Assembly (NCBI RefSeq): GCF_046105845.1
Contig: NZ_CP151004.1
Source: Escherichia coli
GTDB taxonomy: Bacteria; Pseudomonadota; Gammaproteobacteria; Enterobacterales; Enterobacteriaceae
Direction: 5' to 3' (one strand)
DNA length: 64,000 nucleotides
A program made the translations under genes and the position numbers. Within the stretch, counting starts at the first letter, position 1. Each line of letters starts with the position of its first letter. The notes under the pieces were generated by a model that was not told where the DNA came from, did not search any database, and saw only the letters and a list, made by a program, of their open reading frames with translations. This document shows, in pieces, positions 4,139 through 9,911 of the stretch.

Positions 4139-5578
4139 TTACTGCAACCAGGTCGCGGCGATTACGCTGGAAATCAGCGACATCACAATCAGTACAATCA
4201 ACACCAGGCGCATTGATCCTGGCAGCGGTGCGGCATCGGCGACGGCCTCGCTCGGTTTGCCAGGCACGACGCGACCAAACCAGCGAATAAACCAGGCGAA
4301 ACTGGCGACCGATTCAATCATCAGCAGAATCATGGCGGGCAGCAGGATCCAGTACTCCACTGACAACGCAAAACCGGCGGCAAACAGCGGGAATTTACTG
4401 AAGAAGCCGTTGAACGGCGGTACGCCGGTAATCGCCAGCGCTGCCACGCAGAAACCCACGCCTGGCAACGGCAGGGTGTGCAATACGCCACGCAGACGCG
4501 GCAACAAGCGCGTGCCGCAGCTGTAACTCAGCGCACCTGCTACAAGGAAAAACAGGCTTTTAGCGAACGCGTGGTTGACGATGTAGGCGATGCTACCCTC
4601 CAGCGCCAGCCGCGAGCCGAAGATGGAGAGCGACAAGCCGAAGAACATCCAGCCAAGTTGAGTGATGGTCGACCAGGCCAGCAACCGCTTCATATCCTGC
4701 TGTGGCAAATACATCAGGAAGCCGTAAAGAATGGTGACCAGTGCCATAACCATGCCAACGCCGCCAATCACATGCGGGATATTGCCGCCGTCGATAATGG
4801 CACGGGCAAAAATGTAAACGCCCACTTTCACCATCGATGCGGCGTGGAGATAGGCGCTGATCGGTGTTGGCGCTTCCATTGCGTCCGGTAGCCACGCTTG
4901 CATCGGTAGCTGGGCCGATTTCCCCCACGCGGCAAACAGGATGCCGCCATAAACCAGATAACGTGCGTCGCCGTGTAACTCGCTCATCGCGCTAAGCGCA
5001 AACGTTCCGGTCTGCAAAAACAGCGTGGCGGCGGCAAGATACAACCCCAGCGAACCGATATGAGTGATAAGTAACGCTTTTAGTGCTGAACGCTGCGCTT
5101 TATCGCTCTGGTAATAACTGATCAACGCCCAGGAGCAGCCGCCCGTAATTTCAAAAAACAACAACTGACCGAGCAGCGTCGAGGAGAGTACCAGTCCCGC
5201 CATCGCGCCGATAAAAACCAGCAAAAATGCGTAATAACGATTCGTGCCGTTATGCGGGTGTTCGCGATTTTTATCCGTCAGATAACCCGTGGAGTAGATC
5301 GTGACCAGCAAACCGAGAAACACCACCACAAACAGAATCAGCGTACTCACGCGATCAATGACCAGGCCAAACAACGCCACATCCCCCACGTTGACCAACG
5401 TCAACGTGACGGCAACTTTATCGGCCTGATAAAACGCGGAGATCAGTGACAACATGCACAGCGTGGTCAGCGCGGCGAACAAAACCCCCCATTCGGCGGC
5501 CCGACGTTGTGGCGAAAACGAAACGACCAGTGCGCCGATAAAAGGCAGCATTAACGTCGTCAGAGCAAGATTTTCCAT
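4139..5578 (-). CDS. hyfD: Hydrogenase-4 membrane subunit HyfD (antiporter-like)
   Basis: 479 aa polytopic ORF with NuoL/M-like sequence (WLPDAMEAPTP). Confidence 0.92.
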   Translation of the reverse strand: MENLALTTLMLPFIGALVVSFSPQRRAAEWGVLFAALTTLCMLSLISAFYQADKVAVTLTLVNVGDVALFGLVIDRVSTLILFVVVFLGLLVTIYSTGYLTDKNREHPHNGTNRYYAFLLVFIGAMAGLVLSSTLLGQLLFFEITGGCSWALISYYQSDKAQRSALKALLITHIGSLGLYLAAATLFLQTGTFALSAMSELHGDARYLVYGGILFAAWGKSAQLPMQAWLPDAMEAPTPISAYLHAASMVKVGVYIFARAIIDGGNIPHVIGGVGMVMALVTILYGFLMYLPQQDMKRLLAWSTITQLGWMFFGLSLSIFGSRLALEGSIAYIVNHAFAKSLFFLVAGALSYSCGTRLLPRLRGVLHTLPLPGVGFCVAALAITGVPPFNGFFSKFPLFAAGFALSVEYWILLPAMILLMIESVASFAWFIRWFGRVVPGKPSEAVADAAPLPGSMRLVLIVLIVMSLISSVIAATWLQ

Positions 5579-6552: not shown

Positions 6553-8571
6553 TTAGACGGCAATAGCGATTAGCAGCACAACCAGTGCGGCGACCACATA
6601 CAGGCAATAGAGACGAAAGTCGCCGCTTTGCAGATGCTGTATTTCTTTGGCCAGCCGTTGGGTGGCGCTCACGATGGGGCGGATCACCCGCTCATCCCAG
6701 AAGGGTTCTGTGCTCTGAGCCCTGGCGGTGACATGCGCAAGACCTTTGTTCAGCCTCAGCGTAGGGTCGAGCTGTTGTCGTAGACGAAATAGCGCACAAA
6801 AGACCACACGCAGCGGCTGCATCACGCCATTGCCTGACGGGGCCATCGCATTTTCCCAGCCGTAGCCGCATGCCCAGGCATCTCCTGTGCGACGAAACGC
6901 TGCGCGGCGCGAACGACACCACAGCCAGTAAAGGCCAGGCAGCAAAGGCATCGCCAGTAGTAACAGCAACAGTAATGAGGGAGTGACCCGTGTATGAAAC
7001 GTGCCGGGTACAAGTGCTATTCCGCTGGCGACAGTGACGGGAGGGGTATTGGTAAACGCATGGGCAATGTGCATTATCTTCGGTGCCAGCCAACTGGCAC
7101 TAAGCGCAATTAATATGCAGAGTGCCGCGAGCAGTAGCATGGCGACGATCATCGTATTTGGCACTTCCTGTGCCTCTTCAGCGTGTGTACTGCGCGGCGC
7201 TCCACAGAAAGTAATACCGTACATTTTGACGAAGCACATTACTGCCAGCCCACCAGTGACTGCCAGCATCACCATAGCAATAGGACCCGCAAGTTGTAGC
7301 GCTACGGCTTCCACACGACTTAGTGAGAACAGCGACTGCCAGGTGTACCATTCGCTGATAAAACCATTCAGCGGAGGAATGGCTGATATCGCGAGGCAAC
7401 CAATCAGGCATGCTGCGGCTGTCCACGGCATACGTTTCGCCAGTGCCCCCATTTTTTCCATGTCGTGGGTATGCAAACGCGAAATAATCGCACCCGCGCC
7501 GAGAAACAGCAGCCCTTTGAACAGCGCATGGTTGAGCAGATGAAACAGCGCGCCGAGCAGTCCAACAACGGTGAGCAGCGGGTCGTGCAGTGACAGACCG
7601 ACCATCGCCACACCGACCGCCAGCAAAATAATGCCGACGTTTTCGACGGTACTCCAGGCCAGCAGCCGTTTGATATCCTGTTCCGCCAGCGCATACAGCA
7701 CGCCCAGGAGCGCGGAGATTGCGCCGATCGCCATCACCAGAATGCCCCACCACAGCGGCAAACCCGTTTGCGCCAGCAGGTCCATCGCTACTTTCAGGAT
7801 GCCGAAAATACCGATTTTGACCATTACGCCAGACATCAACGCCGAAGCGTGCGATGGTGCGGCAGGGTGAGCGCGTGGCAACCAGCTGTGCAACGGCATC
7901 ATCCCGGCTTTCGCGCCAAAACCGAAGAAGGCCAGCAGGAACACCGCCGACGCCAGCCCCGGAGAAAGTGAAAGCGTGCGGAAACTGGCAAAATCGAGGC
8001 TGCCGCTTTCGCGCCACATCAGCAAGAAGGCGATCATAATCAGCACCGATCCGGCGTGGGCGATAAAAAAGTAGAGCATGCCAGCGTTGATCGACGTTTT
8101 ATCCTGCCTGGCAATGACCAGAAACCAGGAAGACAGCGACATCATTTCAAACAGCACGATGAACCAAAAAGCGTTGTCCATCACCAGCAGGGCAACCATC
8201 GATGCGATGAAAATATTCATAAAGAAGCCCATCGCCGCCGCGCCTTTGCCCTCGTATTCGCGCATATAAGTCAATGAATAGAGCGAACAAACTACCACCA
8301 GCAAGGAGATAACCAGCACCATAAATGCCGAGAGGCTATCCATTCGCAGGGTTAAATCGGCAAAGTCAAAAGGGGTTGCAAAACGGGCGACTAAAGTTAC
8401 GCCTGCATGTAATTGCGTAATTCCGCTGATGATGCCAATCACGCCGCCCACCAGCGATGTGATGCCGGAAAGCTTAATAGCCAGTCTGTCCAGACCGAGT
8501 AAAAACAGCGAAGCCAGACTGGCAAACAGATAGAGAATCAGCGACCAGGTTAATAATTGCAGGGCATCCAT
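6553..8571 (-). CDS. hyfB: Hydrogenase-4 membrane subunit HyfB (NuoL/HycC-like)
   Basis: 672 aa polytopic ORF, antiporter-like motifs (WLPRAHPAAPS). Confidence 0.93.
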   Translation of the reverse strand: MDALQLLTWSLILYLFASLASLFLLGLDRLAIKLSGITSLVGGVIGIISGITQLHAGVTLVARFATPFDFADLTLRMDSLSAFMVLVISLLVVVCSLYSLTYMREYEGKGAAAMGFFMNIFIASMVALLVMDNAFWFIVLFEMMSLSSWFLVIARQDKTSINAGMLYFFIAHAGSVLIMIAFLLMWRESGSLDFASFRTLSLSPGLASAVFLLAFFGFGAKAGMMPLHSWLPRAHPAAPSHASALMSGVMVKIGIFGILKVAMDLLAQTGLPLWWGILVMAIGAISALLGVLYALAEQDIKRLLAWSTVENVGIILLAVGVAMVGLSLHDPLLTVVGLLGALFHLLNHALFKGLLFLGAGAIISRLHTHDMEKMGALAKRMPWTAAACLIGCLAISAIPPLNGFISEWYTWQSLFSLSRVEAVALQLAGPIAMVMLAVTGGLAVMCFVKMYGITFCGAPRSTHAEEAQEVPNTMIVAMLLLAALCILIALSASWLAPKIMHIAHAFTNTPPVTVASGIALVPGTFHTRVTPSLLLLLLLAMPLLPGLYWLWCRSRRAAFRRTGDAWACGYGWENAMAPSGNGVMQPLRVVFCALFRLRQQLDPTLRLNKGLAHVTARAQSTEPFWDERVIRPIVSATQRLAKEIQHLQSGDFRLYCLYVVAALVVLLIAIAV

Positions 8572-9188
8572 TAGCGTTGCTCCTGAGTGAGGGAAAGGGG
8601 ATCCTCCTCGCCATTGGCAAACCAGCTTGCGGCAAGGCGCTGTTTTTCTTTCATCTGACGTTGCAGGCTATCGTCGGTGATCAGCCGTAACGCCTGATTC
8701 GGGCAAGCGCGAACGCAGGCCGGACCTTCTGGCAAGAAATCACACAGGTCGCATTTCACCGCGACGGTCTGGACACCCGGTTCCCAGCGCAGCAAAGCAT
8801 GTTGTGTTGGCGCGTTTTCTTCGCCGTCTTTGAGTGAGCCTTCAGCCTGAAAAACATATTGCGCAGGGGCATTCACCGGACGGCTTCCTGAAGCGCTGAT
8901 TGCGCCAAATGGGCAGACCACGGCGCAAAGCTTGCAGCCAATACAGAGGCTTTCGTTGAGTTGGATCGCATCATCCCTCTGGGAGATGGCATTGACCGGG
9001 CAGACCTGCAGGCAAGGGGCTTCCTCACAGTGATGACACACGACAGGGGCAGTGAGTGTTGACGTCTTCGCCAGGGCCAGGCGCGGGTGTTGCTGTAAAC
9101 CTTGCGTTTTATGCACGTCCGAACAGGCAGCGAGACAGGTATTACATCCTGTACACCACAGTGGTTCGGCCACCACAAAGCGGTTCAT
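8571..9188 (-). CDS. hyfA: Hydrogenase-4 ferredoxin-type Fe-S subunit HyfA
   Basis: Multiple CxxCxxCxxxCP motifs (CTGCNTCLAACS, CHHCEEAPCLQVCP, CIGCKLCAVVCP); ATG 9188 preceded by AAGGAG. Confidence 0.93.
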   Translation of the reverse strand: MNRFVVAEPLWCTGCNTCLAACSDVHKTQGLQQHPRLALAKTSTLTAPVVCHHCEEAPCLQVCPVNAISQRDDAIQLNESLCIGCKLCAVVCPFGAISASGSRPVNAPAQYVFQAEGSLKDGEENAPTQHALLRWEPGVQTVAVKCDLCDFLPEGPACVRACPNQALRLITDDSLQRQMKEKQRLAASWFANGEEDPLSLTQEQR

Positions 9189-9229
9189 GTCGGCTCCTTG
9201 AAAATGATATGAAACATTGCATTTCATAT

Positions 9230-9246
9230 TGCATAAAGGATGCCAG
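9230..9246 (-). promoter_or_regulatory. Sigma-54 (-24/-12) promoter of the hyf operon
   Basis: Minus strand reads cTGGCATcctttaTGCA, matching TGGCAC-N5-TTGCA with GG and GC correctly spaced; about 40 bp upstream of hyfA ATG; hyf is known to be sigma-54 dependent. Confidence 0.7.
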
Positions 9247-9340
9247 TCTTATTAATTTAATATATTCAATAAGTTATGAATTAACTGGATTCTGAACGGT
9301 ACAAAAATGATGGTCATTAACGTTCAGCAAAAAATGGATT

Positions 9341-9385
9341 CGACACCCGTGTCGCAGGGGAAAGTGAGAATGTGATCTTGGTCAC
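9341..9385 (-). promoter_or_regulatory. Candidate upstream activator sites (two short inverted repeats) for the hyf sigma-54 promoter
   Basis: cgacacCCgtgtcg (9341..9354) and gtgaTCTTGGtcac (9372..9385), roughly 100-140 bp upstream of the -24 element; inference only. Confidence 0.3.
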
Positions 9386-9440
9386 GAGAAGTGAGGTGTG
9401 CTGACCACAAGCGCAGCCAGCACGGAATGGAGCAAAGTAA

Positions 9441-9911
9441 TCAGGCGTGTTCTTTCAGCCAGTTCAGCACAACGTCGTGGTGATTGCTGGTTTTGAAATC
9501 GTCAAAGACATGTTCGATTTTGCCATCAGCGTCAATCAGGAAGCTGATGCGATGAATACCATCGTAGGTTTTGCCCATGAAGGACTTTTCACCCCAGACG
9601 CCGAATTGTTCGCACACCTGGTGGTCCTCATCAGACAGGAGCGTAAAGTTAAGCAGCTCTTTTTCCGCAAAACGGGAGAGTTTTTCGGGTTTATCGGTGC
9701 TGATACCCAGCACATCAACGCCCGCTTTTTTCAACTCATCCATGTTATCGCGTAAGCCGCAGGCCTGTACGGTACAGCCGGGGGTCATGGCTTTCGGGTA
9801 GAAATAAACCAGAACACGCTGTCCCTGGAAGTCGGTCAAATTAACTTGTTCTCCGTCTTGATCCGGCAAGCTAAATTTCGGTGCGATATCACCGGCTTTC
9901 AGTGGATTCAT
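9441..9911 (-). CDS. bcp: Thiol peroxidase Bcp (peroxiredoxin)
   Basis: 156 aa; MNPLKAGDIAPKFSLPDQDGEQV... with peroxidatic Cys context (PGCT). Confidence 0.95.
   Translation of the reverse strand: MNPLKAGDIAPKFSLPDQDGEQVNLTDFQGQRVLVYFYPKAMTPGCTVQACGLRDNMDELKKAGVDVLGISTDKPEKLSRFAEKELLNFTLLSDEDHQVCEQFGVWGEKSFMGKTYDGIHRISFLIDADGKIEHVFDDFKTSNHHDVVLNWLKEHA

Follow-up and report, generated by a model that had tools for sequence, protein, structure and literature searches.

Probable modular organisation of the sigma-54 control region upstream of the hydrogenase-4 operon in Escherichia coli

The region between bcp and hyfA in this E. coli chromosome is very likely a modular sigma-54 promoter, in which a sigma-54 box is combined with an FhlA/HyfR-type dyad, an IHF-type site and a site for CRP (cAMP receptor protein). 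As a control region it is ordinary and already characterised, and the mildly new part of it is a single 15-bp conserved element, here called Block C.

The bcp-hyfA region and its promoter

Throughout, the window is the whole 64-kb stretch of DNA that was analysed. Its positions 9189-9440 are the bcp-hyfA intergenic region, 100% identical to an E. coli chromosome between annotated bcp and hyfA, and the operon that follows is the hydrogenase-4 operon, hyfABCDEFGHIJR-focB. The hyfA coding sequence (8571..9188, minus strand) specifies the 205-aa 4Fe-4S subunit of hydrogenase 4 and shares 96% identity with the main cluster of E. coli HyfA. The upstream neighbour of the control region is bcp (9441..9911), which lies on the same strand as hyfA. 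Kosakonia shows the same synteny, bcp-hyfA..J-hyfR-focB-yfgO. A ribosome-binding site, AAGGAG (9194..9199, minus strand), stands 5 nt before the hyfA ATG (9188..9186), and its AGGAGC is kept across the clade. An earlier note on this DNA had pointed to a sigma-54 box and two inverted repeats upstream of hyfA, and all three motifs are present on the minus strand at the coordinates given below.

The sigma-54 -24/-12 element is TGGCATCCTTTATGCA (9230..9245, minus strand); with one extra 5' base it reads cTGGCATCCTTTATGCA (9246..9230). Its GG (9244/9243) and GC (9232/9231) are exactly 10 bp apart (GG-N10-GC), fitting TGGCAC-N5-TTGCW, and 41 nt separate the end of the box from the hyfA ATG. The pattern TGGCAYN5WTGCW has one exact match in 64 kb, which is this box, against 0.68 expected, and the box scores 11.97 bits on a matrix of 186 promoters. 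ChIP-seq of sigma-54 in K-12 reported the site ATGGCATCCTTTATGCA, 31 bp from hyfA and flagged as confirmed (Bonocora et al. 2015), and that 16-mer is identical to the box here. Genomic SELEX with K-12 RpoN holoenzyme likewise placed bcp>hyfA among its strongest peaks. In 61 of 80 hyfA homologues the 200 nt before the ATG contain a box that scores 10 bits or more; those of Pasteurellaceae lack one. The element at 9230-9245 is, by its consensus match, K-12 ChIP-seq, SELEX and conservation, the known and published hyfA promoter, and the earlier note was right about the box, its GG-to-GC spacing, its distance of about 40 bp from the ATG and the AAGGAG ribosome-binding site (9199..9194).

Transcription reportedly begins at about 9218 (minus strand), primer extension being said to have placed a sigma-54-dependent start 30 bp upstream of hyfA. 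Such a start agrees with the GC, which would then lie at -14/-13, and with the distance of 31 bp in the K-12 ChIP-seq data. Expression of hyf is also said to depend on rpoN, FhlA, HyfR and CRP. A promoter scan of the region found no sigma-70 promoter.

The two inverted repeats

Repeat 1 is CGACAC-GG-GTGTCG, with arms at 9341-9346 and 9349-9354. It sits within a putative FhlA/HyfR-type upstream activating sequence, GCGACAcgggTGTCGA (9340..9355, no strand assigned), of the dyad type TCGWCA-N4-TGWCGA, whose centre falls at about -129.5 from the start and 103.5 bp from the -24 GG. We derived this family dyad (composite CGTCA-ytar-TGTCGA) from 45 independent hyf/hyc loci and built its matrix without E. 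coli and without its clade. At enhancer distance in those loci no other 6-mers are as enriched as the words of the dyad: TGTCGA occurs in 42 of the 45 (2.4 expected) and CGACAC/GTGTCG in 28 (2.1 expected). On this matrix the hyf dyad scores 13.7 and ranks second of the roughly 128,000 positions in the window. The K-12 regions footprinted with FhlA (hyc-hyp, fdhF, hydN) score 12.7-19.9, a range that includes the hyf dyad; most sites in other genera score higher, up to 21.9. Eleven of the 12 arm positions fit, the sole departure being the first base, G for T.

Over 60 loci the distance from dyad to GG has a median of 102.5 bp (interquartile range 79-114.5, range 58.5-174.5), so that the hyfA value of 103.5 is typical. 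Across 15 clade sequences the arms are invariant in the CG.CA and TG.CGA columns, whereas several different spacers occur (cggg, ctag, ctaa, cttg, aaaa, ctcg). FhlA is a formate sensor and HyfR is the operon's own paralogue of it; their recognition helices are identical (KRTTLLSRM). A published FhlA matrix (PMC7658346) gives the dyad a poor score, 5.6. We found no footprint, EMSA or ChIP of FhlA or HyfR on the hyf dyad in the accessible literature, and literature searches returned no described hyf upstream activating sequence. From its matrix rank, its conserved arms and its family-typical distance, repeat 1 is credibly a well-supported FhlA/HyfR-type enhancer site, and the proposal that it is a candidate activator site some 103 bp above the -24 GG gains in strength.

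Repeat 2, GTGA-N6-TCAC (9372..9385), is centred about 134 bp above the -24 GG and at about -160.5 from the reported start; its 4-nt arms are below the reporting size of the repeat finder. It had been put forward as a second candidate activator site, and here the evidence leads elsewhere: repeat 2 is the hyfA CRP site, CGTGACCAAGATCACA (9371..9386, no strand assigned), and not an enhancer site. The sequence cGTGA-ccaaga-TCACA has one mismatch to TGTGA-N6-TCACA, fitting 9 of 10 CRP core positions, and the 64 kb hold five such sites against 1.64 expected. CRP ChIP-seq in ETEC H10407 shows a peak at hyfA with the site CGTGATCAAGATCACA, and hyfA is a known cAMP-CRP target that was recovered by CRP genomic SELEX. 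Occupancy has been shown for the K-12/ETEC allele; the window carries C rather than T at spacer-edge position 6 of the allele used in the ChIP-seq, and TGTGAC is present in other CRP-bound sites of the same ETEC table. The Citrobacter orthologue is a perfect TGTGA-N6-TCACA (TGTGActaataTCACA) and Kosakonia has TTTGA-N6-TCACA. The TCACA half is kept in 14 of 15 clade sequences, the exception being Klebsiella indica L005, and the left half in those 14 is TGTGA, GTGA or TTTGA. On the independent dyad matrix repeat 2 scores 0.67 and ranks 765 in the window.

Repeat 2 also contains a GATC. A lead towards Dam methylation was dropped, as the paper naming HyfR merely has hyfR in a GO table.

It is unlikely that repeat 2 is a second FhlA/HyfR activator site, instead of or besides a CRP site, such that both repeats would be enhancers. 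The use of two or more sites is common among enhancer-binding proteins, and the 31 bp from repeat 2 to the dyad amount to three helical turns. Moreover, the published FhlA matrix, which was built from sites of Schlensog 1994 and Leonhartsberger 2000 and not from hyf, scores TGACCAAGATCACA (repeat 2) at 12.4, rank 3 in the window (PMC7658346). We did not accept that rank as evidence for an activator site, because the matrix performs badly on fdhF and hydN of K-12, both of them promoters activated by FhlA, because its shape, TGWC-N6-GWCA, resembles the CRP motif, and because CRP occupies exactly this sequence in vivo, at a known CRP target. The clade, too, keeps a CRP consensus at repeat 2 and not TCGWCA arms, and the rank on the 45-locus matrix is low. 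Another match to the published matrix, inside bcp (9521-9534), received no support from the independent matrix.

Slightly less probable again is that repeat 2 is an FNR site giving anaerobic induction of hyf. Anaerobiosis is reportedly required for hyf expression, which would suit this reading. Further in its favour, the FNR-site prediction of Myers 2013 rated GTGATCAAGATCAC as good (score 13.04), and the study mentioned earlier expression evidence for FNR regulation of hyfA. However, its own ChIP-seq data had no FNR peak at repeat 2, which it classed as a silent site. The half-sites GTGA/TCAC are CRP-like, as against TTGAT/ATCAA for FNR, the allele in the window (GTGACCAAGATCAC) departs further from the FNR consensus, and direct occupancy by CRP has been shown. 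Repeat 2 is therefore treated below as the CRP site.

For repeat 1, we considered whether together with the T-run that follows (CGACAcgggTGTCG aatccaTTTTTT) it might be the intrinsic terminator of bcp rather than a protein site, and find this very improbable. A terminator scan does flag repeat 1 on the strand of bcp and hyf, the end of bcp is 87 nt upstream on that strand, and a T-rich stretch follows the repeat in E. coli and several Kosakonia. An intrinsic terminator would combine a stable G+C-rich hairpin, an immediate U-run and maintained pairing, and repeat 1 shows none of these. Its hairpin is unstable (-5.1 kcal/mol, z = +0.33, with 121 of 200 shuffles folding as well), the T-run begins 6 nt past the stem, all 13 relatives have an uncompensated A.C or T.T in the middle of the stem, and Citrobacter, K. 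indica and Phytobacter are without the T-run. A far better, terminator-like hairpin lies directly 3' of the bcp stop (9398..9423, minus strand; -17.6 kcal/mol, z = -3.1, 2 of 200 shuffles as good), with no U-run after it, and it marks the upstream boundary of the hyf control region. By eye, strain SNPs in its stem look pairing-preserving (G-U to G-C and the reverse).

Equally improbable is that both repeats are chance palindromes without function and that the sigma-54 box alone is real: short inverted repeats are indeed common here (11 pairs of at least 6 nt within the 271-bp region), and neither repeat, nor the box itself, is significant as a bare pattern, but both repeats are kept across genera while their flanks are saturated with changes, both rank at the top of the window on matrices that were independently derived or published, and one has direct ChIP-seq support. 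We judged the sigma-54 box and both repeats to be real because of their position, their cross-genus conservation, the independently derived matrices and the published ChIP data. Among seven diverse E. coli strains the dyad, Block C, the IHF site and the 5'UTR are unchanged; the corresponding SNP contrast, 2/82 against 15/170, is not significant (p = 0.064) and is suggestive only.

The IHF-type site and Block C

Two further elements, both overlooked by the earlier note, lie between the dyad and the promoter. The one nearer the promoter is a putative IHF-type site, ATTCAATAAGTTA (9264..9276, read on the plus strand), which agrees with WATCAANNNNTTR at 8 of 9 positions and is centred at about -52 from the start, 26.5 bp above the -24 GG. 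Its AA...TGA core is invariant in the clade, and the Citrobacter site matches at 9 of 9. Across the family, 40 of 61 loci have such a site with at most one mismatch; its orientation there is the same and its median distance to the GG is 26 bp. The placement in E. coli is family-typical. An IHF ChIP-chip signal has been recorded at the K-12 hyfA upstream region, at a resolution too low for the exact site (Myers 2013, supplement file 6). Literature searches found no described hyf IHF site.

Block C, TGACCATCATTTTTG (9302..9316, minus strand), lies between the dyad and the IHF site, at about -94 to -84 relative to the start. No other element of the control region is as highly conserved. Across 15 sequences, which come from Escherichia, Klebsiella indica, Citrobacter, Kosakonia and Phytobacter, 14 of its 15 positions do not vary. 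All 13 related loci carry it without a mismatch, and its distance above the hyfA ATG is always 115-132 bp. It is absent from the rest of the window, from the other fetched loci and from the K-12 hyc-hyp, fdhF, hydN, hyfR and fhlA regions. We saw it only at hyfR-type hyf operons beside bcp, at a fixed 38 bp (start to start) from the dyad, and found no earlier description of it in the literature.

Block C very probably binds a further factor. More specifically, Block C (TGACCATCAYTTTTG) may be the operator of a further regulator or a HyfR-specific auxiliary site, an idea that we hold tentatively and that is rather more likely to be wrong than right. Candidate factors were compared with it by eye, using consensus sequences. 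IHF mismatches at 3 of 9 positions and has a better site at the family position. An FNR site (TTAAT-N4-ATCAT) can be read in E. coli only, its left half not being kept, and a Fur box fits 14 of 19 positions in E. coli with a left arm that is likewise not kept. The conserved core fits none of NikR, NtrC, ArcA and Fis. A sigma-70 -35/-10 reading comes without a conserved -10, and an antisense open reading frame of 22 codons that starts in Block C has no Shine-Dalgarno sequence and keeps neither its length nor its sequence in Citrobacter.

Comparison with related promoters and implications

The closest known system is K-12 hyfAp (Bonocora et al. 2015), which is the same locus, with identical sigma-54 box, dyad, Block C, IHF site, 5'UTR and ribosome-binding site. 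Twelve single-base differences in 252 bp separate the two, all in spacers except two, a T-to-C change at CRP-site position 6 and an A-to-C change immediately 5' of TGGCA.

The FhlA upstream activating sequences of the formate regulon (hyc-hyp, fdhF, hydN-hypF) use the same words, TGTCGA, CGACA and GTCA, in the same 16-bp dyad layout, as in hydN (TCGTCACTAGTGTCGA) and fdhF (ACGTCAAAACTGACGA). The hyf and formate-regulon promoters are also alike in being of the sigma-54 type, in having an IHF-type site and in their activators with identical recognition helices. They differ in several respects. Where hyc-hyp carries clustered sites, hyf has one dyad, and A stands at position 4 of each arm of that dyad; hyf also has a CRP site and Block C, while hyc-hyp, fdhF and hydN are without either. 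HyfR is said to be a strong activator of hyf but not of hyc, and therefore some discrimination must exist.

A third comparison is with the hyf/FHL-2 promoters of other Enterobacterales (Proteus, Yersinia, Providencia, Morganella, Dickeya and Brenneria) and of Aeromonas. These have a sigma-54 box 40-90 nt above hyfA, at least one TCGWCA-N4-TGWCGA site 60-175 bp above that box, and an IHF-type site about 26 bp above the -24 GG. Their dyads are nearer the consensus (17-22, compared with 13.7 in E. coli), and they are without Block C and without a CRP-type palindrome. For Proteus, dependence of hyf on FhlA and RpoN was shown with reporters (PMC7658346).

Taken together, these elements lead us to propose the following order of events. 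Sigma-54 RNA polymerase, whose occupancy of the site in K-12 was shown by ChIP-seq and SELEX, would wait as a closed complex on 9230-9245. An enhancer-binding protein of the FhlA/HyfR pair would bind GCGACA-cggg-TGTCGA (9340-9355), about 104 bp above the -24 GG, and IHF at 9264-9276 may bend the DNA and so bring the activator oligomer to the polymerase. The activator would then hydrolyse ATP to drive formation of the open complex. cAMP-CRP at 9371-9386, three helical turns above the dyad, might act as a co-activator or as an architectural element and would place hyf under catabolite control. A CRP site centred at -160 of a sigma-54 promoter is an unusual geometry without an established mechanism.

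Several practical points follow from these assignments. The two repeats differ in kind, activator dyad versus CRP site, and should not be treated alike in the design of mutagenesis or footprinting. The family operator TCGWCA-N4-TGWCGA, with its preferred distance of about 100 bp and the fixed position of the IHF site, is usable for annotating FHL-type sigma-54 promoters in other Enterobacterales. If Block C is indeed such an operator or auxiliary site, it could explain the near-silence of hyf in wild-type E. coli; it could also explain how HyfR acts on hyf and not on hyc although its recognition helix is the same as that of FhlA. Block C offers a concrete and testable lead on whether hydrogenase 4 of E. 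coli is ever properly expressed.

The hyfA promoter and its transcription start

The 9100-9560 segment, which covers the end of bcp (9441, minus strand) and the start of hyfA (ATG at 9188..9186, minus strand), matches one E. coli chromosome at 100% identity and nearly all others at 95% or more. The motifs described in the earlier note are all present: a sigma-54 -24/-12 box, cTGGCATCCTTTATGCA (9246..9230), with GG-N10-GC spacing and ending 41 nt ahead of the hyfA ATG; an AAGGAG ribosome-binding site (9199..9194); a perfect 6+6 palindrome, CGACAC-GG-GTGTCG (repeat 1, 9341..9354); and GTGA-N6-TCAC (repeat 2, 9372..9385). Taken as patterns alone, they do not rise above chance, the sigma-54 pattern occurring once in 64 kb (0.68 expected) and inverted-repeat pairs of at least 6 nt numbering 11 in the 271-bp region, so the functional case must rest on context, conservation and published data.

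Primer extension reportedly places the transcription start 30 bp upstream of hyfA, which we take to be ~9218 here, with the GC element then at -14/-13; hyf expression is also said to have needed sigma-54 and FhlA or HyfR. An ORF finder lengthens hyfA to an in-frame ATG at 9227 (minus strand; 218 aa). Because this ATG lies upstream of the reported transcription start, within the promoter, the annotated start at 9188, with its AAGGAG, is the credible one.

The hyfA sigma-54 promoter is real and already known. ChIP-seq of sigma-54 yielded the site ATGGCATCCTTTATGCA, which lies 31 bp from hyfA and is marked as previously confirmed (Bonocora et al., 2015), and the bcp>hyfA spacer gives RpoN-holoenzyme SELEX peaks that rank with the strongest, at 92% and 100% of maximum (Shimada et al., 2021). 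Across 80 loci with HyfA homologues, drawn from species-representative genomes, 61 carry a box of at least 10 bits within 200 nt 5' of the start codon, and the loci that lack one are almost all from Pasteurellaceae.

In that family (Haemophilus, Aggregatibacter, Actinobacillus and relatives; comparison loci L043, L046, L048, L052, L053, L056, L061, L065, L068-L070, L072-L074, L079, L082 and L083), hyfA homologues have no upstream sigma-54 box, so another promoter type must drive the operon there. Within the hyf operon of the window, TGGCATGGTTATGGCA (4742-4757, minus strand) scores 14.3 with the RpoN matrix versus 12.0 for the hyfA promoter; it shares its strand with the hyf coding sequences and may be an intragenic sigma-54 site such as those described by Bonocora et al. 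(2015). At the hyfA promoter itself, a perfect 8-nt inverted repeat, ATATGAAA-N7-TTTCATAT (9207-9229, minus strand), spans the reported transcription start and is overlapped by a direct repeat, ATGCAAT-N5-ATGCAAT (9216-9234, minus strand), whose first copy takes in the -12 TGCA. Neither repeat varies among 7 E. coli strains, and neither is found in orthologous promoters of other genera; they might represent an E. coli-specific operator or 5'UTR feature.

A putative FhlA/HyfR-type dyad and a CRP site

Both repeats had been put forward as candidate enhancer sites. That proposal is well supported for repeat 1, which has conserved arms, a near-top matrix rank and a typical distance from the promoter, and fails for repeat 2, which is a CRP site. 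We aligned the 61 sigma-54-bearing upstream regions by anchoring on the -24 box. The clade nearest E. coli hyf comprises Klebsiella indica, Citrobacter, Kosakonia and Phytobacter, with HyfA 62-69% identical to that of the window; a Kosakonia locus, when walked, showed the same bcp...hyfR-focB-yfgO synteny as E. coli. In a MAFFT alignment of 15 sequences, intergenic change is saturated save for a few blocks, and repeat 1 has arms, CG.CA and TG.CGA, that are invariant in 15/15 around a freely variable 4-nt spacer.

Word enrichment in 45 non-redundant loci outside the clade, 40-190 bp upstream of the -24 box, gave as top 6-mers TGTCGA/TCGACA (42 loci, 2.4 expected), TGACGA/TCGTCA (37, 2.8 expected) and CGACAC/GTGTCG (28, 2.1 expected). 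The profile around TGTCGA resolves into a composite, CGTCA-ytar-TGTCGA, that is a 16-bp dyad, TCGWCA-N4-TGWCGA. Scored with a matrix from these 45 independent loci only, GCGACACGGGTGTCGA (9355..9340) ranks second of ~128,000 window positions. Its score of 13.7 is comparable to the best matches in the FhlA-footprinted K-12 regions and falls within their range (hyc-hyp, 13.8 and 13.4; fdhF, 12.7; hydN, 19.9). The dyad is centred 103.5 bp from the -24 GG; the clade spans 102.5-104.5 bp, and 60 loci have a median of 102.5 bp. Repeat 1 is thus well supported as a putative FhlA/HyfR-type enhancer.

HyfR and FhlA have 51% sequence identity where they align (~47% across the full-length alignment) and carry the same recognition helix, KRTTLLSRM; HyfR orthologues depart from FhlA only at flanking M/L and Q/K positions. 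The dyad could therefore be readable by either protein, and such dual readability fits the activation of hyf by both.

At repeat 2, the 16-mer CGTGACCAAGATCACA (9386..9371) departs from TGTGA-N6-TCACA at a single position. In ETEC H10407, CRP ChIP-seq gives a high-confidence peak at hyfA, with CGTGATCAAGATCACA as its MEME-assigned site (Haycocks et al., 2015), and hyfA is a known cAMP-CRP target recovered too by genomic SELEX (Shimada et al., 2011). The CRP-site form is kept in orthologous promoters, Citrobacter having a perfect TGTGActaataTCACA and Kosakonia and Phytobacter TTTGA-N6-TCACA. The window strain differs from the ChIP-tested allele at one spacer-edge base, C for T, which removes one of two GATC sites. 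The palindrome (GTGATCAAGATCAC) has also been predicted as an FNR site, at which no FNR ChIP-seq peak was found (Myers et al., 2013). A published FhlA matrix (PMC7658346) gives repeat 2 the third-best score in the window, as would befit an FhlA/HyfR activator site; however, that matrix is weak on K-12 fdhF and hydN, both FhlA-activated promoters, its TGWC-N6-GWCA shape is CRP-motif-like, and our matrix from independent loci places repeat 2 only at rank 765. Inside the bcp coding sequence, TGACGCTGATGGCA (9521-9534, minus strand; same in K-12) scores 11.9 with the published matrix, tied fifth-best in the window; as an FhlA site it gains no support from the independent-locus matrix.

That repeat 1 and its downstream T-run form a terminator, as a terminator scan flags, is rejected: its RNA fold shows no excess stability over shuffled sequences (-5.1 kcal/mol, z = +0.33), a stronger hairpin lies directly 3' of bcp (9398-9423; -17.6 kcal/mol, z = -3.1), and in 13/13 relatives the putative stem has an uncompensated A.C or T.T as its middle pair, so the perfect palindrome is E. 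coli-specific. On the alignment, the conserved feature at repeat 1 is a protein-site pattern with arm position 4 free. The 9398-9423 hairpin (minus strand), just after the bcp stop, has no U-run. Strain SNPs within it swap G-U and G-C, seemingly preserving pairing (judged by eye), and other genera have at its position a G+C-rich hairpin and then a T-rich stretch.

Organisation and variation of the control region

Absent from the earlier note was an IHF-type site, ATTCAATAAGTTA (9264-9276), an 8/9 match to WATCAANNNNTTR. The clade alignment shows no change in its AA...TGA core, and the site stands 26.5 bp 5' of the GG; 40/61 loci have a site in the same orientation, at a median of 26 bp. IHF and Fis signal has been noted at the hyfA locus (Myers et al., 2013).

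From bcp to hyfA, the layout runs from the bcp hairpin at the upstream boundary through the CRP site (~-160 from the transcription start), the FhlA/HyfR dyad (~-130), a conserved 15-bp block that we call Block C (~-94 to -84), the IHF site (~-52) and the sigma-54 element (-24/-12) to the start at ~9218, followed by the ribosome-binding site and hyfA. Such a region would operate as a standard enhancer-dependent promoter, in which an ATP-hydrolysing activator, brought to the polymerase by an IHF-induced loop, would remodel the closed complex of sigma-54 polymerase, and CRP would contribute catabolite control; cAMP-CRP is reportedly needed for optimal HyfR-dependent expression. Occupancy by sigma-54 and by CRP is documented, and we infer that an activator binds the dyad, that IHF binds exactly at 9264-9276, and how CRP acts from -160.

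Across seven diverse sequences from E. coli, no change falls in the dyad, Block C, IHF site, 5'UTR or ribosome-binding site; within blocks, variation is confined to two sites, CRP position 6 and a sigma-54 box spacer base. Variation is lower in the blocks than in the remainder (2/82 versus 15/170 sites, p = 0.064), a difference that is only suggestive. Of 5,424 complete E. coli genomes, about 1,127 have no more than the first 49 nt downstream of bcp; an ST131 genome (comparison locus L092, 1030-2659) has yfgO immediately next to bcp, and thus lacks the hyf-hyfR-focB operon in full, together with its control region. The 9189-9440 control region is only ~95-97% identical to most E. coli (HyfA, 96% to the main cluster) and matches that of the freshwater isolate TB06052 at 100%, pointing to an uncommon lineage.

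A conserved block between the dyad and the IHF site

Block C, TGACCATCATTTTTG (9316..9302, minus strand), likewise absent from the earlier note, is the best-conserved element of the whole region, the sigma-54 box itself being less conserved. Fourteen of its 15 positions are invariant in 15 sequences spanning Escherichia, Klebsiella indica, Citrobacter, Kosakonia and Phytobacter; it has 0 mismatches in 13/13 related loci, in each case 115-132 bp 5' of the hyfA ATG, and in E. coli and Phytobacter (locus L010) it starts 38 bp past the start of the dyad's CGACA arm (counted by hand). No further copy occurs in the window, the other fetched loci or the K-12 hyc-hyp, fdhF, hydN, hyfR and fhlA regions, and its conserved core fitted none of the factors considered. 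Block C is flanked symmetrically by the arms of a 10-nt inverted repeat with 90% complementarity, CTGAACGGTA / TAACGTTCAG (9292-9301 / 9318-9327). Outside E. coli, the left arm recurs in Klebsiella indica alone, and the right arm is particular to E. coli.

The earlier observation correctly re-identified a control region that was already known and misassigned one of the two repeats. Block C is the sole item of this control region that merits experiment.
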